Notes under the pieces: generated by a model
What the model was told of the DNA's origin: nothing
Databases searched by the model: none
What the model saw: the letters and a program-made list of their open reading frames with translations, nothing else
Shown: positions 5,331-29,102 of the stretch, piece by piece
Position numbering within the stretch: the first letter of the stretch is position 1
How the letters are laid out: each line of letters begins with the position of its first letter
Source of the DNA: Bacillota bacterium
Lineage (GTDB): Bacteria; Bacillota; Dethiobacteria; DTU022
DNA length: 64,000 bases
Reading direction: 5' to 3'
Assembly: GCA_012840855.1 (NCBI GenBank)
Contig: DUVX01000096.1
Coordinates: 41 to 64,040 of the forward strand
Made by a program: the position numbers and the translations under genes

Positions 5331-6755
5331 TTAATTATCGTTAACACTTTCGGCAAGCAGCGGCAAATTAACATAAAAGGTGCTCCCCTTCCCCTCCTCG
5401 CTCTCGGCCCAAACCCTGCCCCCATGGGCCTCCACCGTTTCCTTTACAATAGCCAGGCCCAGGCCGGTTCCCCCCTCTTCCCGGGAGCGGGCCTGGTCGA
5501 TTCGGTAAAAACGTTCAAATATAAAGGGTAGATCTTTTTCTGGAATTCCACAGCCGGTATCCTCAATTTTAATGGACGCCGCCGTCTCCTCCGCCCCGAG
5601 CGATATTTTCACCCAGCCCCCGGATGCTGTGGACTTCAGGGCGTTGTCCAGAAGGTTTTGAAATACCTGCCGCAACTGGAGCGCGGCTCCGGAGACGAGC
5701 ACCCTTTTGACGGGTAGATCGGTGAGGAGGCGCACTTCCTGATGGTCAAAACGGGGCGCCGCCTGCTGATAGAGTTTCCCGATTACCTCACGCAGATCGA
5801 CGGGCGCAAATCTTGCCGCGCCGCCCTCCAGAGTAGTCAGATCGAGAAGGTCCTGAACAAGAGCGATAAGGCGATCCATCTCACGATCGAGATCGTCAAT
5901 AAATTCCTGCTGCTGCTCCGGTTCCATCTGGTAATTTTTAAGTGATTTTATGATCAGGCTGAGCGAAGCAAGAGGAGTGCGCACCTCGTGGGCCACATTG
6001 GCCACAAAGTTGCGCAAATTTTTTGTATGGTAGTTCAGCTGCTCAGCCATATAATTGAAGCGCTGGGCCAATCGGCCGATCTCGTCCGCTGATTGCACCT
6101 CGATCTTCTGATCGAGCCGCCCCTCGGCCATGCTTCCGGCCGCCTCGCTTAAGAGCTCCAGAGGGCCGCTGAAGCGGCGGGCCAGGATGACCGCACCCAC
6201 GCCGGCTACGATAGCTGCAAGTAGGGTTGTTAGGAGAAAAAAACGCCGCGTATCGGCCATGATCTTGCCGATCTCCTGCAAGGATGCCGAGAGGAAGACC
6301 GCCCCCACCGTTTCATTATCCGCGTAGATCGGCAGCGCCACCTGCATCACTTTTTGCCTGGACAGCTCGCTGTACTGGATGGCAAAGCCGCTTTCGCCAG
6401 CCAGGGCATCCTTGATCTCCTCACGATCGAGAAGCTGCCCCAGCAGCCCCCCCACCCGCACGGAGTCGCCCAGGACGACCATCTTTTCATTCACAAAAAT
6501 AACCCGGGCCCGGGATTGGCGCCCGAAATTTTCAGCCAGCCAGCTCAGCCGGACCGGGTCTGCCTCCTCCTGCAGATAGGCGGAGACGAACTGCCCGGCC
6601 AGGTTTCCCGAGCGCAGCAGGTTTTCTTCCAGAGATTTAATGTAGTAGCGCTCCAACAGCTGATCGAGAAAGAGCCCGACGATGAGCATCACTGCGATAA
6701 TGGTCAACAAAAAGGTGACGGCAAGGCGGGAGCGGATGCTCCTGAACCTGAACAT
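5331..6755 (-). CDS. Sensor histidine kinase (MtrB-like: two TM helices, extracytoplasmic loop, HAMP, HisKA, HATPase; no PAS)
   Basis: 474 aa. H-box HEVRTPL. G-boxes DTGCGIP and GGTGLGL. A roughly 150-aa loop lies between the two TM segments. The start overlaps the response-regulator stop (ATGA coupling). Confidence 0.85.
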   Translation of the reverse strand: MFRFRSIRSRLAVTFLLTIIAVMLIVGLFLDQLLERYYIKSLEENLLRSGNLAGQFVSAYLQEEADPVRLSWLAENFGRQSRARVIFVNEKMVVLGDSVRVGGLLGQLLDREEIKDALAGESGFAIQYSELSRQKVMQVALPIYADNETVGAVFLSASLQEIGKIMADTRRFFLLTTLLAAIVAGVGAVILARRFSGPLELLSEAAGSMAEGRLDQKIEVQSADEIGRLAQRFNYMAEQLNYHTKNLRNFVANVAHEVRTPLASLSLIIKSLKNYQMEPEQQQEFIDDLDREMDRLIALVQDLLDLTTLEGGAARFAPVDLREVIGKLYQQAAPRFDHQEVRLLTDLPVKRVLVSGAALQLRQVFQNLLDNALKSTASGGWVKISLGAEETAASIKIEDTGCGIPEKDLPFIFERFYRIDQARSREEGGTGLGLAIVKETVEAHGGRVWAESEEGKGSTFYVNLPLLAESVNDN

Positions 6756-7450
6756 TAAGGCTCCTCCCTGAACTTATAACCCGTGCCCCACACGGTGAGG
6801 ATCAGCCGGGGGGTGCCGGGATCCTTCTCTATTTTTTCCCGCAGATGACGGATATGCACGTCCACGGTGCGGGCATCGCCAAAGTAGTCATACCCCCAGA
6901 TCTGCGCCAGAAGCTGATCCCGGGAGTAAACCCGACCGGCGTTGGAGGCCAGCAGGCTGAGAAGCGCGAACTCCTTTGCCGTCAGATCGATCTCCCGCCC
7001 CTTTAAACGGACCCGGTGCTGCAACAGGTCGATCGACAGCGGGCCGGCCTGGATCTGTTTGCGCAGCTCGGCACTCCCGGCGCTGCTGCGCCTCAAGATC
7101 GCTTTTATCCGGGCCACCAGCTCTCTCGGATTGAAGGGTTTGGTCATATAATCATCGGCCCCCAGCTCCAGGCCGAGCACCTTATCAATATCCTCGCCCT
7201 TTGCCGTGAGCATAATGATGGGGATCTCCTTTTTTTTGCGGATCTCACGGCAAACCTCGAAGCCGTCCAGGCCGGGAAGCATGAGGTCGAGGATAATAAT
7301 ATCAGGATTCACCTCGAAGGCTTTTTTGAGCGCTTCCTCGCCGTCAAAGGCCTCTTCTACCTGAAACCCCTCTTTTTCGAGATTGAACTTTAACGCCTTC
7401 ACCAGGGTTTTTTCGTCGTCTACGAGAAGAATTTTTGTTTTACCGGACAT
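6755..7450 (-). CDS. OmpR-family response regulator (WalR/MtrA-like)
   Basis: 231 aa. The receiver has DDE and ILDLMLPGLDG. The winged-helix has WGYDYFGDARTVDVHIRHLREKIE. It is very similar to the second WalR-like regulator at 47304. Confidence 0.9.
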   Translation of the reverse strand: MSGKTKILLVDDEKTLVKALKFNLEKEGFQVEEAFDGEEALKKAFEVNPDIIILDLMLPGLDGFEVCREIRKKKEIPIIMLTAKGEDIDKVLGLELGADDYMTKPFNPRELVARIKAILRRSSAGSAELRKQIQAGPLSIDLLQHRVRLKGREIDLTAKEFALLSLLASNAGRVYSRDQLLAQIWGYDYFGDARTVDVHIRHLREKIEKDPGTPRLILTVWGTGYKFREEP

Positions 7451-9343: not shown

Positions 9344-10450
9344 CTACTCCGGCGGGGCGGTGAGCAGACCACCGCGGCGGGCGAAACGTTCCTCCGCCAG
9401 GGTGAGCAGGCGATCAACCAGTTCACGGTAGCCGATGCCGCTTACCTCCCATAATTTCGGATACATGCTGATGGCGGTAAAGCCGGGCATGGTATTGATC
9501 TCATTCACATAGAGCGAACCGCTGTCCGTATCGACAAAAAAATCGACACGGGCCAGGCCGCCGGCCTCCACTGCTCTAAAAGCGCGGCAGGCGTACTCCC
9601 GCACCCTTTCTTCCAGATCCGGCGCCAGCCGGGCGGGATAGATTAGCTCCGAGCGGTCATCAAGATATTTGGCCCTGTAGTCGTAGAACTCATTGCTGGG
9701 GATAATCTCGCCGGGGCGTGAGGCGCGGGGCTCAAGGTCTCCTAGGACGCTGCATTCGATCTCCCTGCCCCGCAGCGCTGCTTCAACAATTACCTTGTCA
9801 TCGTAGCGCAGCGCCTCTTCGACAGCGGCGGACAGCTCCCCCTCCTCCATTACCCGGGAGATGCCGATACTGGAACCAAGATTGGCCGGTTTTACGAAAA
9901 GGGGTAGCCCTAGTTCGCTGCAAATCTGCCCCGTCAGGCGGGGAGCCTCCGCCTGCCACCGGGGGCGGTTAAAATGGAGGTAGGCCCCTACCGGGAGCCC
10001 GTGCTGCTGAAAGAGGAGCTTCATGACCACCTTGTCCATGGCCACCGACGAGGCGAGCACCCCGGAGCCCACATAAGGTATCCCAGCGAGCTCGAAGAGG
10101 CCCTGAACGGTTCCATCCTCGCCATAGGGACCGTGCAGAACGGGAAAAACCAGATCTATCTTCACGAAACGCCAGGAGAGCCCGCCCCTTGTTCCCTCAA
10201 TGAGCAGACCCGGCCGAAGCGGGTCGGTGAGCATGACCGCCCGGGGCAGAGCGCTCAGATCGCCTTGCTCCCGGAGACGCTCCCAGACCTCTTCGCCGCT
10301 CAGCCAGGTCCCGTCGCGGCTGATCCCCACTGGGATGATGGCATAGCGTTCCTCATCGATCGCTTCCATGATCGCCCGGGCCGATTTTAGGGAGACAACA
10401 TGCTCACCGGAGCGTCCTCCGAAGAGCACGGCAACATTTTTTCGTTCCAT
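9344..10450 (-). CDS. ddl: D-alanine--D-alanine ligase
   Basis: MERKNVAVLFGGRSGEHVVSLKSA at the N-terminus. ATP-grasp core. C-terminal EINTMPGFT motif. The start is placed at Met 7 of the 9344..10468 ORF, which has an AAGGGGTG RBS. Confidence 0.85.
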   Translation of the reverse strand: MERKNVAVLFGGRSGEHVVSLKSARAIMEAIDEERYAIIPVGISRDGTWLSGEEVWERLREQGDLSALPRAVMLTDPLRPGLLIEGTRGGLSWRFVKIDLVFPVLHGPYGEDGTVQGLFELAGIPYVGSGVLASSVAMDKVVMKLLFQQHGLPVGAYLHFNRPRWQAEAPRLTGQICSELGLPLFVKPANLGSSIGISRVMEEGELSAAVEEALRYDDKVIVEAALRGREIECSVLGDLEPRASRPGEIIPSNEFYDYRAKYLDDRSELIYPARLAPDLEERVREYACRAFRAVEAGGLARVDFFVDTDSGSLYVNEINTMPGFTAISMYPKLWEVSGIGYRELVDRLLTLAEERFARRGGLLTAPPE

Positions 10451-10598
10451 AGCGGCACCCCTTACCACTTGATCTTCCCCGGATAGAAGAAGCCGGCGAA
10501 TTATTACTGATTATTATATCATTAAACGTCAAAAGGCTGCAGCAGATCTGAAAGAGCTGCCGAAACCACAGCGGCACAGCTACAGGCAGCCCTTCCTG

Positions 10599-10627: not shown

Positions 10628-10698
10628 TGTAAAGGTCTTAAGGCTGGTGGGCCGGACGATCAAAATCGGAAGAAATATTAAACAGATCTGGTGATATC

Positions 10699-12015
10699 TT
10701 GCTGAGGCAAACAACTCCCCCAAATAAAAGCGATGCCTTATTATATGGGCGCGAAGCCGCTTTTGTCCCGCTGCTTTTTGGCAGCGACATCAACGTCTAC
10801 TCTCTGGCGCGGGCATTTCATGAGAGCTATGGGCTCCGCTCAACAGTCTGGGGTAAATATGCTACGGGGCCCTGTTACAACAGCGATATCATCAATTTTC
10901 ACACCTGTGCGCAAAATGACCGGCCCGACCGCTTCATGGAGCATGTGCAAAGCTTTGCCCGATCGCAGGGTGATAAAATAGTTTTTCTTATCGGCTGCGG
11001 CGACAACTATATCCGCCTCTGTAGCGACTTTCTGGGTAGCTACCCGGATAATGTTATCGCCCCTTACCCCGGAAGGGAACTTGTCGATCTCCTCTTCCAC
11101 AAGGAGCGTTTTTACCGCCTCTGCGAGGAGCGGGGGCTGGCTTATCCGAAAACTTTTGTTTATCGGCCGGGCGAAAGTGCCGGCGCCGCGCCGCCCTTCG
11201 AGGGACCCTATATCCTTAAACCGGCCAATCCGATCCTTTACTGGCAGCACCCTTTCCCCGGTCAGAAGAAAGCGTACCGCTTTGCTCGCATCGGCGAGCT
11301 GGAGAGAGCCTTGGAGAAGGTCTACGCCGCCGGCTACGATGACAGCATGATTGTCCAAGATTTTATCCCCGGTGACGATACCTATATGCGGGTGATGACC
11401 GGGTACGCCAACCGGAAGGGCCGCGTTGAGCTGATGGCTCTGGGCCATGTGCTCCTGGAAGAGCACACCCCGCAGGGCATCGGCAACCACGCCGTGATCA
11501 TCAATGAATACGATGAGGCCCTGGCGATGGAGCTTAAAAACTTTCTTGAGGTCATCGGCTTTACCGGTTTTTTTAACTTTGATCTGAAATACGACCAGCG
11601 CGACGGTAAAATGAAGGTGCTGGAGCTCAATGTCCGCCAGGGGCGGAGCAACTACTATGTCACCGGGGCAGGGCACAATCTTGCCGAATACCTGGTGAAC
11701 GATTATATCCTGAACCAGCCCGCCGCATTCACCATCGCCCGAGAGAAATATCTCTGGAGCGTGGTGCCGCGAAGCGTTATGTTCAGCTATATCCGGCCGC
11801 AGATCTACAGGGAGGAGATGAGAGCGCTGATCATGGAGGGACGGATCAACAACCCCCTCAATTATGCTGCTGACAGAAATTTTAAACGGCGCCTTTCTCT
11901 TTTCAAATCACAGCTGGGCCATATCTACAAGTACCGCAAATACCTCGGCAACAGCGTTCGCGCCGCGCAGGCTCCCGCCGCCTCCGTATACCCGCGGACG
12001 CCGGGCGAAAAGTGA
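10699..12015 (+). CDS. ATP-grasp family ligase (candidate D-aspartate ligase, Aslfm-like; otherwise an uncharacterised carboxylate-amine ligase)
   Basis: 438 aa. An N-terminal pre-ATP-grasp region and a central ATP-grasp fold (ILKPANPILYW..., FNFDLKYDQRDGKMKVLELNVRQGRS). Followed at a 31-nt gap by an Asp/Glu racemase and divergent from ddl. The start is annotated as TTG with no obvious RBS, so the start is uncertain. Confidence 0.5.
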   Translation: MLRQTTPPNKSDALLYGREAAFVPLLFGSDINVYSLARAFHESYGLRSTVWGKYATGPCYNSDIINFHTCAQNDRPDRFMEHVQSFARSQGDKIVFLIGCGDNYIRLCSDFLGSYPDNVIAPYPGRELVDLLFHKERFYRLCEERGLAYPKTFVYRPGESAGAAPPFEGPYILKPANPILYWQHPFPGQKKAYRFARIGELERALEKVYAAGYDDSMIVQDFIPGDDTYMRVMTGYANRKGRVELMALGHVLLEEHTPQGIGNHAVIINEYDEALAMELKNFLEVIGFTGFFNFDLKYDQRDGKMKVLELNVRQGRSNYYVTGAGHNLAEYLVNDYILNQPAAFTIAREKYLWSVVPRSVMFSYIRPQIYREEMRALIMEGRINNPLNYAADRNFKRRLSLFKSQLGHIYKYRKYLGNSVRAAQAPAASVYPRTPGEK

Positions 12016-12046
12016 TCAGCCCGTCAAGGAAAGGGCGACCGTTCCT

Positions 12047-12736
12047 ATGCTGGGGGTAATCGGCGGGATGGGCCCCCAGGCGACCTGGCTCTTTTTACAG
12101 GGCGTCACCGACAGAACCGGCGCCGACTGCGATCAGCAGCATATCCCGATGATCATCTTAAACCATACTACCATGCCCGATCGGACGGCGGCGATACTTT
12201 CAGGTAATGAAAGCATGATCCGCAATCTCCTGCTCAAAGATGCCAGGTTGCTGGAGCAAAACGGCTGCCGCGCTATCGCTATCCCCTGCAATACCTCCCA
12301 CTATTTTGTCGATGGGATTCAGGCGGAGATCTCTATCCCCATCATCCATATGGTCCGCGAGACCGTCAACCGGGTTGCAAAAAACAAAGCTGGAATCAAA
12401 AAACTGGCTATCCTGGCCACCGACGGCACCAACAGGACGGGGATCTACCATGAAGAATGCCGCCGCTGGGGGCTTGAGGCCTATACCCCTTCACCGGAAA
12501 AGCAGCTGCTGATGATGAAGATCATCTACGAGGAGATAAAGCGAGGCAGGCAGGGCAGCCTTTCGGACTTTTTGCAGGTGGAGCAGGAGATCCGCAACGC
12601 AGGCTGCGAAGCGGCGATCCTGGCCTGCACAGAGCTCTCCTGCTTCGCCCGCCAGCATCCCCTACCCAACTACTATATTGACGCCATGGATGTGCTTATC
12701 GACAGAACAATACAGTTTTTCGGAAAGGATAAATAG
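12047..12736 (+). CDS. Aspartate/glutamate racemase-family protein (aspartate racemase-like)
   Basis: About 229 aa. Starts MLGVIGGMGPQAT. Has the second catalytic Cys region (LACTELS). The start is an internal Met of the 11864..12736 ORF, with a GGAAAGGG RBS. Confidence 0.75.
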   Translation: MLGVIGGMGPQATWLFLQGVTDRTGADCDQQHIPMIILNHTTMPDRTAAILSGNESMIRNLLLKDARLLEQNGCRAIAIPCNTSHYFVDGIQAEISIPIIHMVRETVNRVAKNKAGIKKLAILATDGTNRTGIYHEECRRWGLEAYTPSPEKQLLMMKIIYEEIKRGRQGSLSDFLQVEQEIRNAGCEAAILACTELSCFARQHPLPNYYIDAMDVLIDRTIQFFGKDK

Positions 12737-12807: not shown

Positions 12808-14892
12808 CTATTCTTTCTCTTTCTCCGCCGCGGCGGCAGCGATAACCTGCTCTGCGGCCTGGTGCGGCACCTCTTCGTAATGCGAGAAAGCCATCGTAAA
12901 AAAGCCGCGCCCCTGGGTCATTGAGCGCAGGTCGATGGAGTACCTGAACATCTCGGCCATGGGAACCTGGGCGCGTATCTTCTGCAGCTCTCCAGCCGAG
13001 TCAACGCCCTGGATCCTGCCCCGCCGGCCATTCAGATCGCCCATGATATCGCCCATATAGGCATCGGGAACCGTGATCTCCACATTCATCACCGGCTCGA
13101 GGAGAACCGGCTGCGATTGCTCCATCCCCTTGCGGAAAGCCATCGCCGCAGCGATCTTGAAGGCCATCTCTGAGGAATCCACCGTATGGTAAGAGCCGTC
13201 TACCAGCTTTACCTCCATATCGACAACGGGGTAACCGGCGAGGACCCCCTCTTCCATGGCCTCGCGGATCCCTTTCTCCACCGCGGGCACATACTGCTTC
13301 GGAACCACCCCGCCGAATATTTTGTCTTCAAAGACAAACCCCTCACCTGAGGCCAGCGGCGCCAGTTCGAGGAAGACATGACCGTACTGGCCCCTGCCCC
13401 CGGTCTGTTTCTTATGCTTCCCTTCCACCTTGGCCTGCCCCTTGATCGTCTCCTTATAGGGCACCTTCGGCGTGGACAGATCAACCTCTACCCCGAATTT
13501 CTGGGAGAGGCGGCTGACGATAATCTCCAGGTGCAGCTCGCCCAAACCGGAGATGACGGTCTCGCGGGTTTCTGCTCGCCGCTCCAGGTGAAAAGTGGGA
13601 TCTTCTTCGAGAAAACGGGAAAGGCCGCTGCTCACCTTCTCCTCATCTCCCTTGGTCTTCGGCTCCACGGCGAAGGAGATCACCGGCTCGGGGAACCCTA
13701 TCGGCGGAAACTGGAAGGGGCTGCTCCGATCGCAGAGGGTATCCCCAGTAGCGGTCTGCTGCAGCTTGGCCACAGCGGCAATATCACCAGCCACCACCTG
13801 CTCCATGGCGATCTGATTTTTGCCCCGCATGGTAAAGAGCTGCCCAATCCGCTCATTCCGGTCTTTGTTGGCATTGTAGATCTGGGAATCGGGTCTGAGC
13901 ACCCCGGAATAGACCCGGAAATAGTTGATCCTCCCCACATAGGGGTCGGCTAGCGTCTTGTAGACCAGAGCGGCGAAGGGCTCCTCGGGCGAGGGGCTGC
14001 GCTTAAGCTCATCGCCGCTTTCGGGATGGACCCCGCCTACCGCTTCCAGATCAAGCGGCGAGGGGAGAAAATCTTTTATGAAATCGAGAAGGGTGGTGCT
14101 GCCCAGGTTGGTGATGGCGGAGCCGCAGAGCACAGGGGTGATCTTTCTTTCCAGGATGCCGCGCCGCAGGCTCTGCCTGATCTCCTCCTGATCCAGCGCT
14201 TCGCCCTCGAGGTACTGGAGCAGCAGCTCATCATCGGTCTCGGCGACGGCTTCGATCAGTTTTTCGCGCAGCGCGCCGGCCTGCTCGCGCAGCTCAGCGG
14301 GGATCTCCTCGCTCTTCACTGTTTTGCCGTCGTCGGAGAAGTAGAGCGCTTTCTCCTCGATGAGGTCCACTACCCCTTTGAAGTCATCCTCTTTGCCGAT
14401 GGGCAGATGAACAGGGACTACGTTCACCCCGAAGTGCTGCTGCAACTGCTCCATGGCGCCCTCAAAATTGGCGTTTTCCCGGTCCAGCTTGTTGATCAGA
14501 ACGAGGCGGGGCAGGCCAAAATCATCGGCATACTGCCACACCTTCTCAGTACCTACCTCCACCCCCGATACGGCGCAGACAACGACGGCACAGCAGTCAG
14601 CCACGCGCAGGGCGCCGATCAGATCCCCGATGAAGTCAAAGTAACCGGGCGTATCCAGGAGGTTGATCTTCACGCCCGCCCACTCCAGGGGGGCCAACCC
14701 CACGTTGATCGTGACCTGCCTTTTGATCTCGTCGGGATCGTAGTCGGTGACGGTGGTGCCCGCTTCAATAGTGCCCTGGCGGTTGGTCGCGCCGCTGGTA
14801 AAGAGAAGCGCCTCGGCAAGAGAGGTCTTTCCGGCACCTCCGTGGGAGATTAAAGCAACATTGCGGATCGCTTCACTGGAATAATATTTCAT
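12808..14892 (-). CDS. Elongation factor G paralog (EF-G2-type translational GTPase)
   Basis: 694 aa. G1 AHIDAGKTT-like motif ([15 protein letters not shown]), G3 DTPGYFDF, and EF-G domains II-V. It sits away from the str operon, so it is a paralog rather than the canonical fusA. Confidence 0.8.
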
Positions 14893-16530: not shown

Positions 16531-17811
16531 CTATGGTTCCAACAGCCGGCAGGCGGTGGAGCCGAGTCGGCGACCCCAGACCAGCGCCTCCGTGAGCGGA
16601 AAGCCGGGGATGATCGTTTTTCCGTTAAGCACTCCTGCCGTCTCCCCCAGAGCATAAAGCCCTTCCACCGGCTCTTCGTTCCGCAATACCCGCCCGGTTT
16701 TGTCGACGGCGATCCCCCCAAGGCAGTAGGAGGCCACCGCTTTTATCCTGACGGCAAAAATTTCACTTCGCCCCTTCCTGAAGTAGCGCTCCAGCTCCGG
16801 AAGCTCGAGCGCACAGTCCTCCATAAAAGCGCCGATGTCGCTGTAACGGGGCCAATCCGGTTCCTCTTTTTCCTTCAATCCTGCGCCGGATAGAAGCATA
16901 TACCCCCGGGAGGAAGGACTTTTTGCCAGCATCTGCACCAGCTCAGTCTCGCGATCTGGTGAAAGCGGGATCAGCTCCTCATCAACGACCGCCAGCGCAC
17001 CCGGCGGCGTCTCCACCGGCATCCAGCCCTGCCTCTTTTCTGCCGCCAGGGTATAGGCAAACCGCGACTCCTCCACCAGATCCAACCCGGCCTCGCGGGC
17101 CAGCTTAAGGCTCTCGCCGCCACCACTTCGCCAGGGGGCGACAGCCGTACCCGGCGCCAGCTCCTCGACCCATGCCTGATCATCCAAAAAACCGCCGTCG
17201 GCCAGGATAACCGCCGGGGCGTAAATATGATTATAGACCCCGGCGGGATCGGTAAAACCTACACCTGAGATCTCGCCGCCCTGGATGAGCAGCTCCTCGA
17301 GAACGGCCCCCTCAATAAAGCGGACCCCTTCCCGCTGGAGACTCTCCCACAGGCGGCGGTGCACCTGGTCGTAAGACAAGTTTGCCCGAAGGCAGCGCTG
17401 CGGCGCTTCTTGCGAAAATTTTAGCCCTGTTTCCTGGGACAGCCATTCCAGATCCCCGGCCGCCCTTTCGCAAATCAGGGCGAGATGCCACTTTTTGCAG
17501 CCCATCCTGCCGGCATCATCCAAAAAATCTTCAAAGGATCGGCCGTCAGCCCTTTCTTCAGGACAGAGGGCGCCCTCCTCCCAGAGCCAGTCTTCAGCAA
17601 GGGGCTCGCCGGAAAAGATGATCACAGCAGCGCCCTTTCGGGAAGCCTCCAGGGAAGCAACGAGCCCGCCGATGCCGTCACCGACAACGATGATGTCGGC
17701 GCTCAGGGGCGGCTTTTTGTCCCTGCTCAAACCCGGTTCAAAACCACAACCGGAAAGAAAAAACAGAAGGAACAGGGTTATCAGAAGGATGCTGCGGCAG
17801 CGCAAAATCAA
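16531..17811 (-). CDS. Secreted lipoprotein of the FAD-binding_2 family (fumarate reductase / flavocytochrome c flavoprotein-like)
   Basis: 426 aa. Signal peptide with lipobox LSGC. Dinucleotide-binding motif [11 protein letters not shown]-terminal [19 protein letters not shown] typical of FAD_binding_2. The start overlaps the gyrA stop by 4 nt. Confidence 0.7.
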
Positions 17812-20243
17812 ACCCTTCTCTCCTCTTCGGGAAGGGCGATCAGATCCATCACCCGATCCCCTTCGTCAAGGCGAATCAAGATAACCCCCCGGGCGTAGCG
17901 GCGCATTAGGGTAACCTCCGCCGTCTTCTGACGGATCACCAGCCCTTCGGCGGTAACGATTATAAAATCCTCCGCCTCCTCGCTCATAACCTTAAAGCCG
18001 GTTAAAGGCCCGCTCTCTTTGGAGATCCTCATCCCCACCAGACCCCGCCCGGCCCGGCGCTGAGCCCGGAATTCAGCCAGGGAAACCCTCTTTCCATAAC
18101 CGGCCTCGGAGACCATGAGCGCGATCTTACCCTTGCTGACCAGATCAGCACCGATAACCCGATGCGGCGGCTCCAGGGCGATCGCTTTCACCCCGCGGGC
18201 AACGCGCCCCATGGGCCGGACATCTGTTTCGGAAAAGCGGATGAAATAGCCCTCATCAGTGCCGATAATGAGCTCTTCCGCACCGCTGGTCAGGTTTACG
18301 GAGATAAGCTCGTCATCATCGGGCAAAGCGATCGCAATCAACCCGGTTTTACGGGCATGGCGATACTCCTTCAGCGCTGTCTTTTTAATATACCCCCCGG
18401 CGGTAATAGCAACCAGGTACCTGCTCTCATCGTATTCCCTGATGGGCAGGCTGGCGGTAATATATTCTTTCTTTTCCAGGGGAAGCAGGTTCACCATAGC
18501 CATGCCCCTGGCCTGGCGGCTGGCCTCCGGTATTTCATAGATATTTAACAGATAGACCCTCCCCCGATTGCTGAAGCAGAGCAACTTGTGATGGGTGGAG
18601 GCAAAATAGCACTGCTCCACAAGATCATCCTTGCGCATCTGCATGCCGACGATGCCCTTACCGCCGCGACGCTGGCTGCGGTATGTTGAGGCCGGCAGCC
18701 TTTTGATATAGCCGCGATCCGTGATCGTGATCACGACATCTTCTTCGAGGATCAGGTCGGTAAGCTCCAGATCGACCGTTTCTGCCACGATCTGGGTGCG
18801 CCGCTCGTCGGCGTATTTTGCACCGATCTCCCGCAGTTCATCGCCGATAATGCTCATCAGCAGCCCTTCATCGGCCAAAATACGACGCAGGTAATCGATC
18901 TTCTTCAGCAGCTCCTGATGCTCCTCTTCAAGTTTCGACTGCTCCAGCTGGGTCAGACGCTGTAGGCGCAGATCGAGGATCGCCTGGGCCTGTTTTTCAG
19001 AGATAGAGAGGAGCTCGATGAGGCCATTGCGTGCACTGGGGCCATCGGGAGCACGGCGGATCAGGGCGATCACTTCATCAAGCCTGGAGAGGGCGATGCG
19101 AAGCCCTTCGACAATATGAAGCCTCTCTTCAGCCCGTTTCAGATCATAACGGGTCCGCCGCTCCACCACCTCTTTTTGATGCTCGAGATAGTGGAAGAGC
19201 ATCTCTTTTAAATTTAATACACGCGGCTCGCCATCTACCAGGGCCAGCATGATGATGCCGTAGGTTTGCTGTAGCGGGGTATACTGATGGAGTTGATTGA
19301 TGATCAGCTGAGACTGATAACCGGGGCGGACCTCCAGCACTATGCGCACCCCCGTATGATCGGACTCGTCTCTTAAGTCGGTGACCCCTTCGATCTTCTT
19401 ATCCTTGATCAGCTCGGCAATCTTCACCACCAGTTTGGCCTTGTTCTGCTGATAGGGCAGCTCGGTAATGACGATATGCTCCCGGTTCTTATCTTTTTTA
19501 TCAATGAGTACCCGGCCCCGCATCCGGATGATCCCCCGGCCCGTCCGATAAGCTTTGTTGATCCCCTCATAGCCCACGATGAGCCCTCCGGTGGGGAAAT
19601 CGGGGCCGTGGATCAGGCGCTGCAGATCCTCCACGGTGCTCTCGGGGCGCTTGATCAATAGCTGCAAAGCTTCGATGAGCTCGCCTAAATTATGGGGTGG
19701 TATATTGGTGGCCATCCCCACGGCGATGCCGGCCGATCCGTTGGCCAGCAGATTGGGAAAACGTGCCGGCAGCACCACCGGTTCTTCCAGGCTCTCATCA
19801 AAATTGGGCCGAAAGTCTATAGTTTCCTTGTGCAGATCTCGTAACAGCTCCATCGCCGAGGTGGAGAGACGGGCCTCGGTATAACGCATCGCCGCCGGCG
19901 CATCGCCGTCCTGCGAACCGAAGTTGCCGTGTCCGTCCACCAGGGGATAGCGTGTCGAAAAATCCTGGGCCAGGCGAACCATGGCATCGTAAAGAGCGCT
20001 GTCACCATGTGGATGGTATTTGCCGAGCACCTCGCCGACAATACGCGCCGATTTGCGATAAGGTTTATCGGGCGTGGAGCCCATCTCCGCCATGGCATAG
20101 AGAATGCGGCGGTGAACGGGTTTAAAGCCATCCCTTACATCGGGCAACGCCCTGCTGACGATCACACTCATGGCGTAATCGAGAAATGATTTTTTTACCT
20201 CTTCATGAACGCTAACCGGTACAATCCTTTTTTTCTCGTCCAT
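17808..20243 (-). CDS. gyrA: DNA gyrase subunit A
   Basis: 811 aa. Active-site region [10 protein letters not shown] with the catalytic Tyr, QRDR, and the C-terminal beta-pinwheel. Confidence 0.95.
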
Positions 20244-20329
20244 CAGATTCCCTTTCCCGAAACTTCAAGATTTCAATACCGCCCGCCGCACAGCAGAGTA
20301 GGGGGCGGCCGGCTTATTCCAAAGCGCGG

Positions 20330-22276
<1,947 letters not shown>

Positions 22277-22298
22277 TCAATCATTTTAGCAACTATGC

Positions 22299-22538
22299 TT
22301 ATCTATTTTTGCTTTCTCGGCGCGCCAGGGTGGTCGGAACAATGGGAGAGAACAGTAGAGCGTCATCGGTGACAATAAAAGATTTATGTCGCCCAAGATC
22401 GCTGTTCCGGTAAAATTTCTTATCGCTGCCCGATTCAAGAAATTGTTTATTAACGGGGTTGTCCCGGAGGTTCATATTAAAAATACCGATCAATTCGCTC
22501 TTAAAAACAACCCGCCCCTTTCCGATATGGATAAACAT
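22299..22538 (-). CDS. DUF370 family small protein (RemB/YaaB-like), the usual recF-gyrB interposed gene in Firmicutes
   Basis: 79 aa. MFIHIGKGRVVFKSELIGIF is the characteristic N-terminus. The local GC content is lower than the flanks. Confidence 0.65.
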   Translation of the reverse strand: MFIHIGKGRVVFKSELIGIFNMNLRDNPVNKQFLESGSDKKFYRNSDLGRHKSFIVTDDALLFSPIVPTTLARRESKNR

Positions 22539-22571
22539 CTTACTCCCCCCGTGATACCGGCGCTTTTTAAT

Positions 22572-22868
22572 TTAAAAGTGGTCATCCAACCCGATCTGAA
22601 AGTAGATATCGTCAACTAATTTTTCACCGGCATATTGATTCAATTTTTCAATCAATTGAGGCTTTAACAGGGTTAGGTGGTAGGCCCAGGTAGAATCGCT
22701 CACCCTCACCCGGAGTATTTCCCGCTCTATCCGGTGCGCGCGGGTCACCGCGGCGATCTTTTCACCCACCAGGTGCTCCCACTGATCTATTATAAGGTAT
22801 TGGCGATATTGGCGCCACATTTTTCTTTTTTCCAATACCTGTCTAATAATCTGTCCCAGCTCAATCAA
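22572..22868 (-). CDS. DUF721 protein (DciA-like)
   Basis: The C-terminal roughly 90 aa (WEHLVGEKIAAVTRAHRIEREILRVRVSDSTWAYHLTLLKPQLIEKLNQYAGEKLVDDIYFQIG) match the DUF721/DciA pattern. The start is probably a TTG overlapping the recF stop (ATTGATTGA), or the ATG at 22820. The longer annotated ORF overlaps recF and is not used. Confidence 0.55.
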   Translation of the reverse strand: MIELGQIIRQVLEKRKMWRQYRQYLIIDQWEHLVGEKIAAVTRAHRIEREILRVRVSDSTWAYHLTLLKPQLIEKLNQYAGEKLVDDIYFQIGLDDHF

Positions 22869-23976
22869 TTTTAACCTTCCCCCGGGAAATATTATAGACC
22901 TGCGCCCCGCCGGACCAGCGCTGCTCCGCCGCCCATGATGGTGAAGCCGTGGTGATAAAGGATTGTCCCGCCCTGCTGCGTAGAAATTGCAGCAGATGGG
23001 CGCTTCTCTTTTCATCGAATTCGGAGAGAACATCATCGAGCAGCAATATTGTCTCTTCGCCGCCGGCTTTTTTAAAGAGGTCCACCTCACCTATCTTCAA
23101 AGCGAGCACAACGCTGCGCTGCTGCCCCTGGGAGCCGTACTTGCGGGCATCGCGGCCATCGATCAGCATGGCAAAATCATCGAGGTGAGGGCCGAACATG
23201 GTGGAACCGCGGCGGATCTCCGCCGTATACCCCTTCCTGAGCTGCTCCAGGAAAGCTCCCTCCAGAAGATCGGGGTCGCCGTCAAATTTTATCGTTGGGA
23301 GATATCGCAGCGTGAGCATTTCTTTCCCTGCCGTAAGGGTGGCAAAGTGAAAGCCGGCCCTGCTCTCCAGTGCCGCCAGCATCTTCGTTCTCTCCCTGAT
23401 GATAACGCTGCCCCACCTTGCCAGAGCCAGATCCCAGGGTTCTAAAAGCGAGCGCGCCGCAGCGGAGCTGCCCCGCTTTTCCTTTAAAATCCGGTTTCGC
23501 TGCTGCAGGGCGCGATGATAATCGCGCAGCCGGCGGTAGTAGAGCGGTTTCAGCCGCGAGCCCTCCATATCCAGAAAGCGGCGGCGGATGGCGGGGCCCT
23601 CTTTAACGAGGAGAAGATCGTCGGGCGAGAAAACCACAATGGGCTGGCGATAGATATACTCCGCCCTTTTGAGCGCCTTACCGTTGCATCTTACCTGAAG
23701 ACGCCGCGGCAAGCGGTACTCTATCCCGACCCGGCTGCTTTCCCCTTTTTTTTGAAAGGTCCCCTTCAGGGAAAAATATTCACTACCAAAACGCAACAGA
23801 TCGGCTTCCCGGTTGGTCCGGAAGGAACGAGATACAGCCAGGTAGTAGATCGCCTCCAGGAGATTGGTTTTCCCCTGGGCATTGAGCCCGGTAAATATAT
23901 TGATCCCCCGATGAAAGGAGAGCTCTTCCTGAAGATAGTTGCGAAAGTTGACCAGTTTTAATGTCGCCAAATACAT
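22861..23976 (-). CDS. recF: DNA replication and repair protein RecF
   Basis: 371 aa. Walker A GLNAQGKTNLLEA and ABC signature region. Confidence 0.9.
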   Translation of the reverse strand: MYLATLKLVNFRNYLQEELSFHRGINIFTGLNAQGKTNLLEAIYYLAVSRSFRTNREADLLRFGSEYFSLKGTFQKKGESSRVGIEYRLPRRLQVRCNGKALKRAEYIYRQPIVVFSPDDLLLVKEGPAIRRRFLDMEGSRLKPLYYRRLRDYHRALQQRNRILKEKRGSSAAARSLLEPWDLALARWGSVIIRERTKMLAALESRAGFHFATLTAGKEMLTLRYLPTIKFDGDPDLLEGAFLEQLRKGYTAEIRRGSTMFGPHLDDFAMLIDGRDARKYGSQGQQRSVVLALKIGEVDLFKKAGGEETILLLDDVLSEFDEKRSAHLLQFLRSRAGQSFITTASPSWAAEQRWSGGAQVYNISRGKVKID

Positions 23977-23993
23977 GATCGAATTTGCACTAT

Positions 23994-25109
23994 CTAGTTC
24001 ATCTTGATCGGCAGGACGAGATAAAGATAGCTTTCATCGCCGGGCAGGCGAAAAACAACAGGCCCGCTTTTACCATGAAAATCGATAATGATCTCCTCTG
24101 AAACGGTAGCCTTGAGAATATCCATCACAAACCGGGAATTTATATAGAGCTCCACCTCTTCGCCCTCTTTTTTAACAGCAAGGGATTCTTCCATGCGCCC
24201 GATCTGCGAGGAGACGCGAACAAAAAGGGTGCTTTCAGAGAGGGAGAGCTGGATGGCGCTGTTGATCCCCTCGGCAAGCAGGGCTGCCCGGCTCACCGCA
24301 TCGGTAAGCTCATGGCGGCTCACAAATATTCTCGTGGAGTAGTGTTCCGGTATGACGGAGCTTATATCGGGATACTTTTCATTTAACAGCCGCGCTGCAA
24401 AGTAAACCGTGGGAAGCCTGAACACGAGATGATCCTTGCCGGGGTAAATTACCACTTCCTCCTGCTCCAGATCCAGGATCCTCGAGAATTCACGCAGCGC
24501 TCTGGCTGGCGCGAGACAACGTAAAGGCTCGAAGTGCCAATCTCCGTCCAAAAGGCTTTTAAAGACCAGACGGTAGGTGTCCGAAGAGATCAGGTTCCAC
24601 CTGCCGCCATCAAATTCAAAGAGAATACCGTTGAAAGCCGGCCGCGTCTCCTCGGTGGAGGCGGCAAAGACAACCATTTTCAAAAGATCCCGCAGCACCG
24701 GCGCATCGATAGTGATGGTACTGTCGCTCCCCGGTAAGAGCTCTTCTACCCGGGGAAAGTCGGCCGGATCCGATCCGAACAGGTTGTAGCGGGATTGGCC
24801 GCTACTCAGGGAAAGATGGAGGTTGTCCTGATCCAGATCGAGCTGCACTTCCTGCTCCGGCAGCAACCGGACGATATCGGTTAACTTGGGCGGCAGCAGC
24901 ACGCTTCCCGGCTCGTCACCCTCGTAAGGAAGAGAGACTTTGATCGAAAGCTCGAGGTTGGTGCTGGAGAGGACCAGCTGCTGGGAATCGCTTTCCAGAA
25001 GAATGTTCTCCAGAGATTGCACCGCCGAATCCTTTGGTAAAGCCTTTTCTACGATCTCCAGGGAACGGTGTAAACCGGTCTTCGGTAATAGAATAGAGAT
25101 ATCATTCAC
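23994..25109 (-). CDS. dnaN: DNA polymerase III beta sliding clamp
   Basis: 371 aa with a three-domain clamp architecture. GTG start. Immediately downstream of dnaA. Confidence 0.9.
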   Translation of the reverse strand: MNDISILLPKTGLHRSLEIVEKALPKDSAVQSLENILLESDSQQLVLSSTNLELSIKVSLPYEGDEPGSVLLPPKLTDIVRLLPEQEVQLDLDQDNLHLSLSSGQSRYNLFGSDPADFPRVEELLPGSDSTITIDAPVLRDLLKMVVFAASTEETRPAFNGILFEFDGGRWNLISSDTYRLVFKSLLDGDWHFEPLRCLAPARALREFSRILDLEQEEVVIYPGKDHLVFRLPTVYFAARLLNEKYPDISSVIPEHYSTRIFVSRHELTDAVSRAALLAEGINSAIQLSLSESTLFVRVSSQIGRMEESLAVKKEGEEVELYINSRFVMDILKATVSEEIIIDFHGKSGPVVFRLPGDESYLYLVLPIKMN

Positions 25110-25184
25110 CCACTTTCTCGTTTTTGAACAGGTAAGAATCTAGGAGCTATTTATAGATCTAGGAAATACTAATAACAGACCCTG

Positions 25185-25311
25185 TGGAAAATGTTAAAAA
25201 GTAAAAAAAGAGCTCTCCCATTGCCTTTATGTCGCCCGATGATGTGGACAAGCCCCTCAATAGTTTAGGGGATGAATGTGCATAGATCGGATTTCCTCTG
25301 CTTGTCCATAA
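25185..25311. promoter_or_regulatory. oriC part I: DnaA-box cluster in the dnaA-dnaN intergenic region
   Basis: Near-consensus TTATCCACA-type boxes: TGTGGAAAA (25185-25193), TGTGGACAA (25245-25253) and TTGTCCATA (25303-25311). Confidence 0.6.
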
Positions 25312-25316
25312 GTTAC

Positions 25317-26678
25317 TCATAGGCTGTTAGAGATCTCATTTCTAATCAGATCGACAGTCATCTTCTTATCGCCCTCGCTTTCCAAAAGATCTTCAATTTT
25401 TCTGACGGCGTAGAGAACGGTAGTGTGATCGCGTCCACCAAATTCTTCGCCGATCTTCGGTAAGGATAGCTCGGTAAGATCGCGTGCCAGGTACATGGCC
25501 ACCTGTCGGGCGAAGGCTATCTCTTTGGTTCTTCTTTTACCGCAAATATCGTCTCCCTTGAGGTGAAAATGTTCAGCGGTGGCTTCGATGATCTTCTCTA
25601 CAGTGATCTTCTTTTTGGGGGAAAATAGAACATTCTTGAGCGCCTCATCGGTCAGCTCCATGGTAACCTCGGAATCGAAAAGGGAGGCATAGGCGACAAT
25701 TCTGATCAGGGCGCCCTCCAGTTCACGGATATTATTTTCTATTTTGGTAGCAATATAATGGATCACTTCATCGGGGATAGTTAAGCCCTCGGTGAGCGCC
25801 TTTTTCCTGAGAATGGCGATCCTCGTTTCGAGATCGGGCGATTGGATATCGGTGATAAGGCCCCATTCAAAACGGGAACGCAGGCGATCCTCCAGCGTGG
25901 GGATCTCTTTGGGCGGACGATCGCTGGAGATAACGATCTGCCGGTTGAGATTATGGAGAGTGTTGAAAGTATGGAAAAATTCCTCCTGGGTCTGCTCCTT
26001 TCTAGCTAAAAACTGGATATCATCGATGAGCAGGATCTCCATGCTGCGATATTTGTTACGAAATTCAGCGGTTTTGTTATCGCGGATCGAATTGATAAAA
26101 TCATTGGTGAACTTCTCTGAAGAGCAGTAAAGGATATTATTGCAGTGATGGTGATTGATCACATACTGACCGATAGCATGTAGTAGGTGAGTTTTTCCCA
26201 GCCCCACGCCACCGTATATAAAAAAAGGGTTATAGGCTTTGGAGGGGGTTTGGGCAACGGCCAGGGAAGCGGCGTGCGAAAGGCGATTACAGGGGCCGAC
26301 AACAAAGCTTTGGAAGGTGTAGCGGGGGTTAAAAAAGGAGAGATCTTTGGCGTCCCGCTCCTCTGTATCCGCCACTGTCGGAACAACGGCGTCGTCATCA
26401 CCGCTGTTTTCTTCAAAATCGATAAAATCTGCAGAGACGACGAACTGGAGATCGTAATCCTGTGAGGTAACCTCCTCGATTTTTTTCTTGATTATTTCGC
26501 GGTACTTATTTTGTAGCCACTCGCGGGTGAAATCATTGGGCACCGCAACGAGAAGGCAGTGATCTTTAAGAGAAACCGGGTGGGTCGAATGAAACCAGGT
26601 TTCGAAGCTTGGCCTACCGATCTCCTTGCCAATTTCAGCAAGGATTGCCGACCAGAGTGTAGAAAGATTACCGGGCAA
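25317..26678 (-). CDS. dnaA: Chromosomal replication initiator DnaA
   Basis: 453 aa. AAA+ Walker A GGVGLGKTHLL, sensor motifs, and C-terminal DnaA-box binding domain (EIGEEFGGRDHTTVLYAVRKIE). TTG start with a GGGAGGT RBS. Confidence 0.95.
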   Translation of the reverse strand: MPGNLSTLWSAILAEIGKEIGRPSFETWFHSTHPVSLKDHCLLVAVPNDFTREWLQNKYREIIKKKIEEVTSQDYDLQFVVSADFIDFEENSGDDDAVVPTVADTEERDAKDLSFFNPRYTFQSFVVGPCNRLSHAASLAVAQTPSKAYNPFFIYGGVGLGKTHLLHAIGQYVINHHHCNNILYCSSEKFTNDFINSIRDNKTAEFRNKYRSMEILLIDDIQFLARKEQTQEEFFHTFNTLHNLNRQIVISSDRPPKEIPTLEDRLRSRFEWGLITDIQSPDLETRIAILRKKALTEGLTIPDEVIHYIATKIENNIRELEGALIRIVAYASLFDSEVTMELTDEALKNVLFSPKKKITVEKIIEATAEHFHLKGDDICGKRRTKEIAFARQVAMYLARDLTELSLPKIGEEFGGRDHTTVLYAVRKIEDLLESEGDKKMTVDLIRNEISNSL

Positions 26679-26717
26679 GATGATACCTCCCTGCTGAATT
26701 TGCGAAGGGTTTTGGAG

Positions 26718-26830
26718 TTATACACAAATTAGCATAGTTACTAACAGGTTGCTGTGAATAACCTCGCAAGATAGCTATGTTAAGCTTACAGTAGATCATA
26801 TATTAACAGATATAATGGGGCATCGCAATC
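26718..26830. promoter_or_regulatory. oriC part II: DnaA boxes plus an AT-rich putative unwinding element, between dnaA and rpmH
   Basis: TTATACACA (26718-26726) and TGTGAATAA (26753-26761, reverse complement TTATTCACA). An AT-rich tract lies at 26770-26815 (agatagctatgttaagcttacagtagatcatatattaacagatataatg). Confidence 0.6.
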
Positions 26831-26879
26831 ACCAGAAAGAGGCGCGAGGCCTATTTGAAGGCGAAAAGAGCCGGTTATC

Positions 26880-26909
26880 TTGACATTGGTAATTTTTTTG
26901 CGGTATACT
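26880..26909 (+). promoter_or_regulatory. Sigma-A-type promoter of the rpmH-rnpA operon (TTGACA-18-TATACT)
   Basis: -35 at 26880-26885 and -10 at 26904-26909. It overlaps a weak DnaA-box-like TTATCTTGA. Confidence 0.55.
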
Positions 26910-26948
26910 TTTTCTGCAACCTAACAAAAGCGCTAGAAAGGGTAAATT

Positions 26949-27083
26949 ATGAAAAGGACCTATCAACCTAAACTGAGAAGAAGAAAGCGTAAGCATGGTT
27001 TTATGAACAGAATGAGTACTACCGCCGGAAGAGCGATCATCAGGAGAAGGCGCCGGCGGAAAAGGCGGAGGATCAGCGCTTAA
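26949..27083 (+). CDS. rpmH: 50S ribosomal protein L34
   Basis: Hand-translated as [43 protein letters not shown] (44 aa). It is absent from the ORF track because it is under 60 aa. Confidence 0.95.
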
Positions 27084-27092
27084 AAGCGGGGG

Positions 27093-27428
27093 ATGAAGGT
27101 AAAGCGGCTTAAAAAAAACTGGGAATTCAAGAGAGTATACCGGCGAGGCAAATCCTTTGTCTCTAAAAGAATTGTCCTCTATGTTTATCCCAACAGGACC
27201 GATCACAGCAAAATTGGGTTCTCCATAAGCAAAAAAGTGGGGAAAAGCGTACAACGAAACCGGATCAAAAGGATTTATCGGGAAGCATTTTTAAGCCTTT
27301 ACCACGAAATCAAGCAGGGTTACGATCTTGTTGTGGTGGCCCGGAGAGAAGCTGTGGGGGTACCTTTGAGCCTGGCCCGGGAGGAGTTGTATGCGCTTTG
27401 CCGCAGGGGAAAGTTGCTTCGAAAATAA
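27093..27428 (+). CDS. rnpA: Ribonuclease P protein component
   Basis: 111 aa. Basic protein with the RNR-like motif region, immediately after rpmH. Confidence 0.9.
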
Positions 27429-27448
27429 AACAGCCAGCAGGGCTGATC

Positions 27449-27658
27449 ATGGAAAAAGTATGCCTGGCGGCGATATCAGTGTATCAAAGATATATTTCGC
27501 CGCTAAAACCTCCTACCTGCAGGTTCTATCCGACCTGTTCTCAGTACTGTTATGATGCAATAAGAAAATACGGGGTCTTCCGGGGTGGTATGCTCGGGGT
27601 GAAACGGATACTGCGATGCCATCCTTTCCACCCGGGCGGCTACGACCCGGTAAAATAA
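27449..27658 (+). CDS. yidD: Membrane protein insertion efficiency factor YidD
   Basis: [22 protein letters not shown]...[11 protein letters not shown]. The start is placed at the internal Met (MEKVCLAA). Confidence 0.85.
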
Positions 27659-27690
27659 GGCTCCTCCAGGAAACCAAGGGGTGATCTAAG

Positions 27691-28440
27691 ATGATCGATA
27701 CCATTGCACAATTTTTCGGGGTGATTATCGGCTATATCTATACGCTAATACCCAATTTTGGTGCAGCCATTGTTATTTTTGCCGTTTTGTTCAAGCTGGT
27801 GACCTTTCCGCTGAACCAGAAGCAGCTGCAATCGAGCAAGAAGATGCAGGAGCTAAATCCGGAGATGAAGCGTATTCAGCAAAAATACAAGAACGATAAA
27901 GAGAAGCAGAACCAGGCCATGATGGAATTTATGCAGAAGCATAAGATCAACCCCATGGCCGGCTGCCTGCCTCTGCTCGTTCAGCTGCCGATTCTCTACG
28001 GAATTTTTCGCCTGCTCAGGGACACGGGAAGTTTCCTGGGGGATACGATCAACACCTTCCTGCTACCCTCGCTTCAGTTTCTTGATCTGAGTATCGCCCC
28101 GAGCAAGTTTCAGGGGGATATGGTCCAGCAGGTGATATTTTATTCATTACCGATAATTTCGGGGCTCACCACTTACCTTTACCAGAAAACAGCGATCACC
28201 GATCCCAGCCAGAAAATGATGCTCTACGCCATGCCGGCGATGTTTGTGTTTTTTAGTTTTCAGTTCCCGGCGGGGCTGATTGTCTACTGGATTACAAACA
28301 ACCTTTTGACTATGGGGCAGCATCAGCTGGTAGTGCGGATGGATGAGGAGAACAGGAGCGAAACAAAAGTGGAGCCAGCGGCGGGGAATAAACAGAAGAG
28401 ATCGCCAAAAGTTAAAAAAGGAGCAAAAGGAGAGAGATGA
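27691..28440 (+). CDS. yidC: YidC/Oxa1 family membrane insertase (short Firmicutes type, SpoIIIJ/YqjG-like)
   Basis: 249 aa, multi-TM, with the conserved GCLPLLVQLPIL region. Confidence 0.9.
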   Translation: MIDTIAQFFGVIIGYIYTLIPNFGAAIVIFAVLFKLVTFPLNQKQLQSSKKMQELNPEMKRIQQKYKNDKEKQNQAMMEFMQKHKINPMAGCLPLLVQLPILYGIFRLLRDTGSFLGDTINTFLLPSLQFLDLSIAPSKFQGDMVQQVIFYSLPIISGLTTYLYQKTAITDPSQKMMLYAMPAMFVFFSFQFPAGLIVYWITNNLLTMGQHQLVVRMDEENRSETKVEPAAGNKQKRSPKVKKGAKGER

Positions 28441-29057: not shown

Positions 29058-29102
29058 GCGAGAGGTAGCGCACCGCTCCTCGGCCGGGGAGCGGTTTTTT
29101 CT

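Follow-up and report, generated by a model that had tools for sequence, protein, structure and literature searches.

A putative D-aspartate ligase and aspartate racemase operon divergent from ddl in an uncultured Bacillota genome

Organization of the locus

We analyzed a 64,000-nucleotide (nt) stretch of contig DUVX01000096.1 (positions 41 to 64,040, forward strand; hereafter, the window) from the Bacillota bacterium assembly GCA_012840855.1, and focused on two adjacent genes that encode an ATP-grasp enzyme and a relative of aspartate racemases. These genes are candidates for a system that would provide a D-aspartate (D-Asp) cross-bridge to peptidoglycan. The pair, its expression signals, and three further genes on which the argument draws are as follows (aa, amino acids; ORF, open reading frame; PLP, pyridoxal phosphate):

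10699..12015, plus strand: putative D-aspartate ligase (asl-like ATP-grasp enzyme), TTG start, 438-aa ORF
12047..12736, plus strand: racD-like PLP-independent aspartate racemase, ATG start, 229 aa
10599..10627, plus strand: sigma-A-type promoter, TTGCCA (10599-10604), 17 nt, TATAAT (10622-10627), with a TG extended -10
10690..10695, plus strand: Shine-Dalgarno-like GGTGAT, 3 nt 5′ of the ligase TTG, read off the sequence
9344..10468, minus strand: ddl, D-alanine--D-alanine ligase, divergent neighbor, with Pfam and NCBIfam matches
12808..14892, minus strand: EF-G gene (NF009381, 1014 bits), convergent with racD
61671..63173, plus strand: MurE of the DNPA type (TIGR01085, 460 bits), DNPA at residues 417-420 (nt 62919)

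The ligase and racemase genes lie on the same strand and are separated by exactly 31 nt. The coordinates and spacing that the first-pass annotation had given for the 438-aa ligase and its Asp/Glu-family racemase were reproduced, as was the divergent position of ddl, whose product scored 450.8 bits on NF002528 (public gene calls start ddl 6 codons further in, giving 368 aa). A longer racemase ORF starting at ATG 11864 (290 aa) was rejected, as it overlaps the ligase gene and as the 229-aa form is the one seen both in homologues and in public gene calls.

The promoter had been described as perfect; its sigma-A type was upheld, but 11 of the 12 consensus positions were matched in a consensus scan. 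When the upstream regions of seven relatives with 66–74% identical ligases were aligned, the -10 block ATTGCTATAAT was invariant, and TTGCCA or TTGACA was found at -35 in most of them (none in L040). Because the -10 and -35 elements are kept in otherwise diverged upstream DNA, a functional promoter is favored over a chance match, and this phylogenetic footprint argues for function.

The TTG start had been reported to lack a ribosome-binding site and to be ambiguous, and neither statement was sustained. The GGTGAT that precedes it is complementary to the 3′ end of 16S rRNA; it also precedes the TTG in L005, and GGTGA is present in L006. TTG 10699 is the first start codon past the upstream in-frame stop, and the next in-frame ATG, GTG, or TTG is codon 80, from which translation would omit the family-invariant residues D30, N32, Y34, A37, and R38. 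In addition, conservation in the closest homologues (P0002-P0005) extends over the first 20 residues (P0002, for instance, has MLKQVAPPKNNDALLYGREAQ), and independent gene calls on four public contigs give the same 438-aa product. For these reasons, TTG 10699 is, as read from the sequence, the only usable start codon of the ligase.

A gathering-threshold Rfam search of the whole 64-kb window matched no RNA family, and no riboswitch or leader was found 5′ of the pair. The same search gave no T-box leaders 5′ of serS or argS and no tRNAs.

Family and fold of the ligase

The ligase had only subthreshold ATP-grasp matches in Pfam and NCBIfam, neither of which holds a curated model for it, and a sequence search of the Protein Data Bank (PDB) returned noise only (best match, FabZ; E = 0.027). 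Its fold was predicted to be ATP-grasp from an AlphaFold2 model (predicted local distance difference test, 85.5; predicted template modeling score, 0.86), in which the clade-specific tails (residues 1-18 and 420-438) had low confidence. With this model, Foldseek found 463 PDB matches at E ≤ 0.001. The best 50 were all ATP-grasp-type ligases, PylC being first, followed by L-amino-acid ligases, PurK, Ddl, and carbamoyl-phosphate synthetase (E about 1e-13). Cyanophycin synthetase and glutathionylspermidine synthetase, the alternatives named in the first-pass annotation, gave no match in Pfam or NCBIfam and were absent from the best 50 Foldseek PDB matches, which places the ligase outside those two families, as had been expected.

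Homologues of the ligase were numerous. More than 2,258 passed a word-indexed search, and an exhaustive HMMER search gave 360 clusters (50% identity) at E ≤ 1e-30. Nine homologue clusters share the 430- to 443-aa architecture of the window ligase, and hundreds of homologues of approximately 402 aa (53–63% identity) came from Eubacteriales, Oscillospiraceae, Intestinimonas, and Anaerovoracaceae. The closest relatives in the genome scan were uncultured "Bacillota bacterium" metagenome-assembled genomes (MAGs). JGI often names the homologues "D-aspartate ligase," and NCBI names them "ATP-grasp domain-containing protein" or "carboxylate--amine ligase"; the NCBI labels stay generic because the family has no Pfam or NCBIfam model.

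A tblastn search of a plasmid collection identified ligases of Latilactobacillus curvatus, Lactobacillus crispatus, and Limosilactobacillus fermentum with 36–38% identity (E = 2e-71 to 5e-77) over 87–90% of the query (about 390–400 aa), in records that are apparently chromosome pieces deposited as plasmids. The next-nearest ATP-grasp families showed 23–27% identity (E = 1e-6 to 1e-10). Approximately 70 columns were invariant in the alignment with the Lactobacillaceae homologues; the invariant residues include K174, K191, E270, D295, K297, N311, and R313 (alignment A1), and E309 was invariant among closer homologues (alignment A2), in keeping with the nucleotide and Mg2+ motifs expected of an ATP-grasp enzyme. 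In a neighbor-joining tree, the window clade fell within the Asl-type family, in a subfamily from Clostridia, and was well apart from an outgroup ATP-grasp protein. No record from Enterococcus or Lactococcus appeared in the plasmid tblastn search, the genome scan, or the best-120 lists, and a protein search seeded with a Carnobacteriaceae homologue recovered mostly Sporosarcina and other Bacillales, and no Enterococcus.

The L. curvatus gene lies 3′ of aspS and an amino-acid racemase gene, and the L. crispatus gene lies 3′ of asnB. We regard the Lactobacillaceae matches as Asl-type because these racD and asnB contexts agree with the aslA, racD, and asnH contexts of lactic acid bacteria. In Lactococcus lactis, aslA and racD form an operon, and aslA is present in lactic acid bacteria with Lys-D-Asp walls and absent from Lactobacillus plantarum, which is of the meso-diaminopimelic acid (mDAP) type (PMC4155827); AslA and RacD of L. 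curvatus have also been described (PMC13631041). At the sequence level, the window ligase is therefore placed in one family with the Asl-type enzymes of those Lactobacillaceae whose walls are Lys/Orn-D-Asp. The family is best described as cross-bridge D-dicarboxylic-amino-acid ligases and not as D-Asp-specific.

The racemase

The product of the second gene matched PF01177 over residues 5-219 (E = 4.5e-38) and TIGR00035 at 202.6 bits (cut-off, 93.1). Its best solved relative was the aspartate racemase of Pyrococcus horikoshii (1JFL; E = 2.1e-41), with whose catalytic cysteines Cys81 (PCNTSH) and Cys194 (ACTELS) align. In addition, R46 and K165 occupy the positions of R48 and K164 in the Pyrococcus protein, residues with a role in substrate binding, and the other top solved relatives are likewise aspartate racemases. 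Identity to the L. curvatus RacD was 36.5%. By its matches and motifs, the partner gene encodes an aspartate-racemase-type enzyme.

Conserved gene neighborhood

Linkage was counted in 39 related loci whose downstream sequence reached at least 900 nt, a racemase being scored when it lay within 600 nt on the same strand. The ligase was followed by a racemase homologue in 24 of the 39 loci, which argues for a pairing beyond chance. Directly after the racemase, a MurE-like gene was present in about 19 Clostridia loci; of the 36 loci that extend 3.5 kb or more downstream, 17 had it, as did two shorter ones. The divergent arrangement of ddl and asl was kept in L006, L026, and L043-L045. L006, L026, L004, and L040-L042 keep the window order, in which udg, an aminotransferase gene, and ddl share a strand and are followed by asl and racD, with EF-G convergent. 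Because the linkage to ddl and murE recurs, guilt by association argues strongly for a role of the pair in peptidoglycan-precursor synthesis.

EF-G keeps its site convergent on racD in all close relatives, apart from any ribosomal-protein operon. In one 66%-identical relative (L041:328-1581), an extra 417-aa ATP-grasp protein with weak PRK12767/carbamoyl-phosphate synthetase-like matches is encoded directly 5′ of asl; this gene is absent from the window.

Six loci, from Intestinimonas, Ruminiclostridium, Lawsonibacter, and Oscillospiraceae, have a MurE-like gene behind asl-racD whose product ends in an ArgB domain (acetylglutamate kinase; TIGR00761, 229.6 bits) and carries L-T-E-E-D-x-G instead of DNPx. 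This fusion is a Rosetta-stone hint that those MurE enzymes may use L-ornithine. The fused genes are:

L010:5284-7794, MurE-ArgB fusion
L011:11955-14345, MurE-ArgB fusion
L013:12945-15326, MurE-ArgB fusion
L016:2446-4806, MurE-ArgB fusion
L024:7950-10466, MurE-ArgB fusion
L028:12013-14388, MurE-ArgB fusion

Two loci from uncultured "Bacilli" MAGs (L018:2905-7218 and L020:8437-12730) have no racemase and contain, in this order, a murE (DNPR), an asl homologue, and a second murE-like gene without a DNPR-type motif, two MurE types thus flanking the ligase. Two asl-family genes each were found in Brachybacterium (L036:9902-14403), where a racemase is also present and one asl copy lies within a 729-aa ORF, and in Carnobacteriaceae (L030:3015-5521). 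Brachybacterium walls are of the mDAP-D-Asp/D-Glu kind, and a double asl would fit two-residue D-Asp/D-Glu bridges.

MurE and the predicted acceptor

The DNPA-type MurE that the first-pass annotation had reported in the window was confirmed by a motif scan at 61671..63173, 50 kb from asl-racD and outside the operon; the region at 47–53 kb holds WalRK, YycHI, and MurA. Its motif is LTADNPAGEE, with Ala aligned to Arg416 of the Escherichia coli MurE, and the other contact residues (the RD..KRP segment and the Glu of the GKGxE loop) are conserved. Arg416 binds the carboxylate of the D-center of mDAP, and the motif of the Lys-adding Staphylococcus aureus MurE is DNPA (PMC3829189). The window MurE shares with that L-lysine-adding enzyme (PDB 4C12) the identical DNPA and the conserved GKGxE Glu, whereas overall it is closer to mDAP-type enzymes: in the PDB search, E. 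coli 1E8C was matched at E = 2.7e-81 and 4C12 at E = 4.6e-67, and its score on the Lys-ligase model PRK14022 was below the cut-off.

Among the best 120 MurE homologues, the roughly 50 closest (44–99% identity) had DNPA, DNPG, or DNPV, whereas DNPR was present in every one of the more distant homologues, which came from Syntrophothermus, Desulfofundulus, Thermaerobacter, and Paenibacillus. The closest named relative was from a Dethiobacteria MAG (67% identity), and a Dethiobacter sp. protein was also matched; the host lineage is thus probably related to Dethiobacteria. Because the closest homologues lack the Arg, the distant ones have DNPR, and the NCBIfam scores (given in the Discussion) fit, the sequences indicate that the loss of the DNPR arginine is a clade-wide change within the mDAP-type MurE lineage, and the window enzyme looks like a case of independent arginine loss in that lineage. 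If the motif is read as a proxy for position 3, this MurE is the predicted supplier of an L-Lys or L-Orn acceptor.

Comparison with known systems

The pair resembles two systems from lactic acid bacteria. Bellais et al. in 2006 reportedly described Aslfm and Racfm of Enterococcus faecium as a D-aspartate ligase (EC 6.3.1.12) and an aspartate racemase, and Veiga et al. in 2006 are said to have done so for AslA and RacD of L. lactis. Both systems have been summarized (PMC4155827, PMC13631041). Like the window pair, they are two-gene clusters in which an ATP-grasp ligase is paired with a PLP-independent Asp racemase, and they are associated with a MurE without the DNPR arginine; moreover, the window ligase shares a family, over its full length, with their Lactobacillaceae orthologues. 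Several features differ. The ligase precedes the racemase in the window, whereas the racemase lies directly 5′ of the ligase in L. curvatus; the window protein belongs to a Clostridia-type subfamily with short clade-specific N- and C-terminal tails; the pair is divergent from ddl in the replication-origin region; no asnH or asnB for amidation was seen adjacent to it; and the host is a spore-forming anaerobe and not a lactic acid bacterium.

The closest homologues outside the window clade (47–63% identity) are in the asl-racD-murE operons of cultured and uncultured Clostridia (Intestinimonas, Lawsonibacter, Oscillospiraceae, Anaerovoracaceae, and Ruminiclostridium; L009-L028), in which ligase-racemase order and spacing are as in the window. 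In those operons a MurE-like gene with the motif L-T-E/A-E-D-x-G and no DNPx is directly next, whereas the window operon stops after racD and the window MurE belongs among the mDAP ligases by lineage but has Ala in place of the Arg.

PylC (L-lysine:D-ornithine ligase of pyrrolysine biosynthesis; PDB 4FFL), which acylates the epsilon-amine of lysine with a D-amino acid, and the L-amino-acid ligases BL00235 (PDB 3VOT) and RizA (PDB 4WD3) share the ATP-grasp fold with the window ligase. With 12–16% identity, a template modeling score of about 0.5, and another gene context, however, the window ligase is not a member of these groups.

Genomic setting

The window was assigned to contig JBMNKB010000001.1 of NCBI assembly GCA_050951945.1. 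Its interval 17808..30512 is the chromosomal replication-origin region, with a cumulative GC-skew minimum at about 24–26 kb and GC content down to 46.5% at 26–28 kb. The genes are arranged as follows:

minus strand: gyrA, gyrB, recF, dnaN, and dnaA (dnaA at 25317..26678)
plus strand: mnmE and later genes

The asl-racD pair is about 14 kb from dnaA. Two WalK-Cache-type two-component systems are present, at 5331..7450 (minus strand) and 47304..52035 (plus strand), and the second comprises the complete WalR/WalK/YycH/YycI set, after which come MurA, HtrA, and a class A penicillin-binding protein (PBP; 56783..58783). The region around the origin is thus rich in cell-wall genes.

Discussion

Taken together, the sequence comparisons make it likely that the pair is a two-gene asl-racD operon for the D-Asp side chain of Lys- or Orn-type (A4) peptidoglycan. 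D-Asp is the expected substrate because an Asp racemase is co-transcribed with the ligase. Transcription from the promoter at 10599-10627 would yield a single mRNA for both genes, with about 65 nt of leader, and the ligase would be translated from TTG 10699 via the GGTGAT ribosome-binding site. The racemase would convert L-Asp to D-Asp by the two-cysteine, PLP-independent route of its family, using Cys81 and Cys194. If the ligase acts as the E. faecium and L. lactis enzymes do, it would use ATP to convert D-Asp, at its beta-carboxyl, to the activated beta-aspartyl phosphate and would then couple D-Asp to the cytoplasmic precursor UDP-MurNAc-pentapeptide, at the side-chain amino group of the diamino acid in position 3. 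The DNPA-type MurE (61671..63173) would supply the acceptor diamino acid, and the neighboring Ddl would supply the D-Ala-D-Ala end of the precursor. After export, PBPs would cross-link D-Ala4 to the alpha-amino group of D-Asp, the class A PBP at 56783..58783 being a candidate for this step.

The first-pass annotation had proposed a D-aspartate ligase/racemase pairing, and this proposal agrees with the homology to Lactobacillaceae Asl, the Asp-type racemase, the conserved operon, and the MurE without Arg. It had further predicted an A4alpha (L-Lys-D-Asp) wall. The D-Asp bridge of that prediction is supported by the sequence, whereas the choice of L-Lys over L-Orn is not separable at that level, and our confidence in a wall that is exactly L-Lys-D-Asp is somewhat lower than that in the D-Asp side-chain system. 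The view that such a wall is unexpected in a spore-former was overstated: homologues of the ligase are common in the spore-forming Bacillales Sporosarcina, Psychrobacillus, and Ornithinibacillus (and also occur in Filibacter) and are widespread in Clostridia. Many of these spore-forming Bacillales have A4-type walls, and Lys- or ornithine-type bridged walls in spore-formers have precedent.

Several observations weigh against a D-Asp system with a Lys or Orn acceptor. The tie to characterized enzymes is made by way of Lactobacillaceae orthologues, themselves recognized from their gene context, and not directly to Aslfm or AslA, and the window clade forms a subfamily of its own that shares about 36% identity with the lactobacillar proteins. 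The relatives from Sporosarcina and Psychrobacillus probably ligate D-Glu. In overall sequence, MurE fits the mDAP-ligase equivalog NF001126 best (457.8 bits; cut-off, 373), its score on the model for Lys ligases being 310 bits; the genome may encode a second MurE outside the window; and the DNPA/DNPR motif is not the sole determinant of MurE specificity (PMC3829189). Finally, the racemase passes the cut-off of NF052483, the model of the cysteate racemase CuyB (199.5 bits; cut-off, 190).

Three other explanations were considered. The one that survives best, although we judge it unlikely, is that the system is of the same type with other chemistry, namely an L-Orn (A4beta) or mDAP (A4gamma) acceptor or a D-Glu donor. 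Family members occur in Ornithinibacillus, Psychrobacillus, and Sporosarcina, genera with Orn- or D-Glu-containing bridges, and Brachybacterium, with its mDAP-D-Asp/D-Glu wall, has two ligase copies. The fusion of the downstream MurE to ArgB of the ornithine pathway in several Clostridia loci points in the same direction, and the MurE motif cannot separate Lys from Orn. The S. aureus enzyme takes L-Orn weakly (PMC3829189). A dedicated Asp-type racemase is, however, co-transcribed with the ligase, whereas D-Glu from MurI would need no such partner, and the Sporosarcina locus has no adjacent racemase. The loss of the MurE Arg speaks against mDAP, and DNPA is the exact motif of the Lys-adding S. 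aureus enzyme.

It is considerably less probable that the system acts outside the wall, with an enzyme like L-amino-acid ligases or PylC making a small D-amino-acid peptide or metabolite from the racemase product. PylC and the dipeptide-forming BL00235 and RizA are among the top structural matches, and no curated Pfam or NCBIfam model names the ligase. The low identity and template modeling scores of those matches indicate generic ATP-grasp similarity, however, and the sequence homology to proteins with Asl context is far stronger. In addition, the ddl/murE linkage recurs across many genomes, and no transporter, nonribosomal peptide synthetase, or other biosynthetic genes adjoin the pair.

The racemase is most improbably CuyB of sulfonate metabolism with an incidental ligase neighbor, since it passes NF052483 barely and scores equally high on the generic Asp-racemase model, since that CuyB model barely separates Asp racemases (L. 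curvatus RacD, an Asp racemase by context and literature, scores 185), since its neighbors are the ligase and EF-G with no CuyA-type sulfo-lyase adjacent, and since the ligase-racemase adjacency is conserved in 24 loci.

The D-Asp side-chain operon thus remains the preferred explanation. It is a system of a known enzyme kind and reveals no new mechanism. More tentatively, the whole uncultured, spore-forming, Dethiobacteria-related lineage may have exchanged direct mDAP cross-linking for a Lys(or Orn)-D-Asp bridge, a possibility to which we give slightly less credence than to its negation. Two changes would be involved: the loss of the DNPR Arg in an mDAP-type MurE and the insertion of a Clostridia-type asl-racD cassette beside ddl near the origin. 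If such a switch occurred, the question would be how the normally mDAP spore cortex is built, whether with a second MurE or as a Lys-type cortex. In the literature searched, we found no wall chemotype for Dethiobacter or Intestinimonas and no Clostridia with L-Lys-D-Asp.

For this uncultured lineage, the analysis provides a testable chemotype prediction, an A4-type wall with Lys/Orn-D-Asp. More broadly, it draws attention to an under-annotated Asl-type family that occurs widely among Clostridia, gut genera among them, and shows tight linkage to racD and murE. Recognition of this family may be of use in genome-based chemotaxonomy, in interpreting the production of D-aspartate by gut anaerobes, and in predicting the targets of endolysins and antibiotics.

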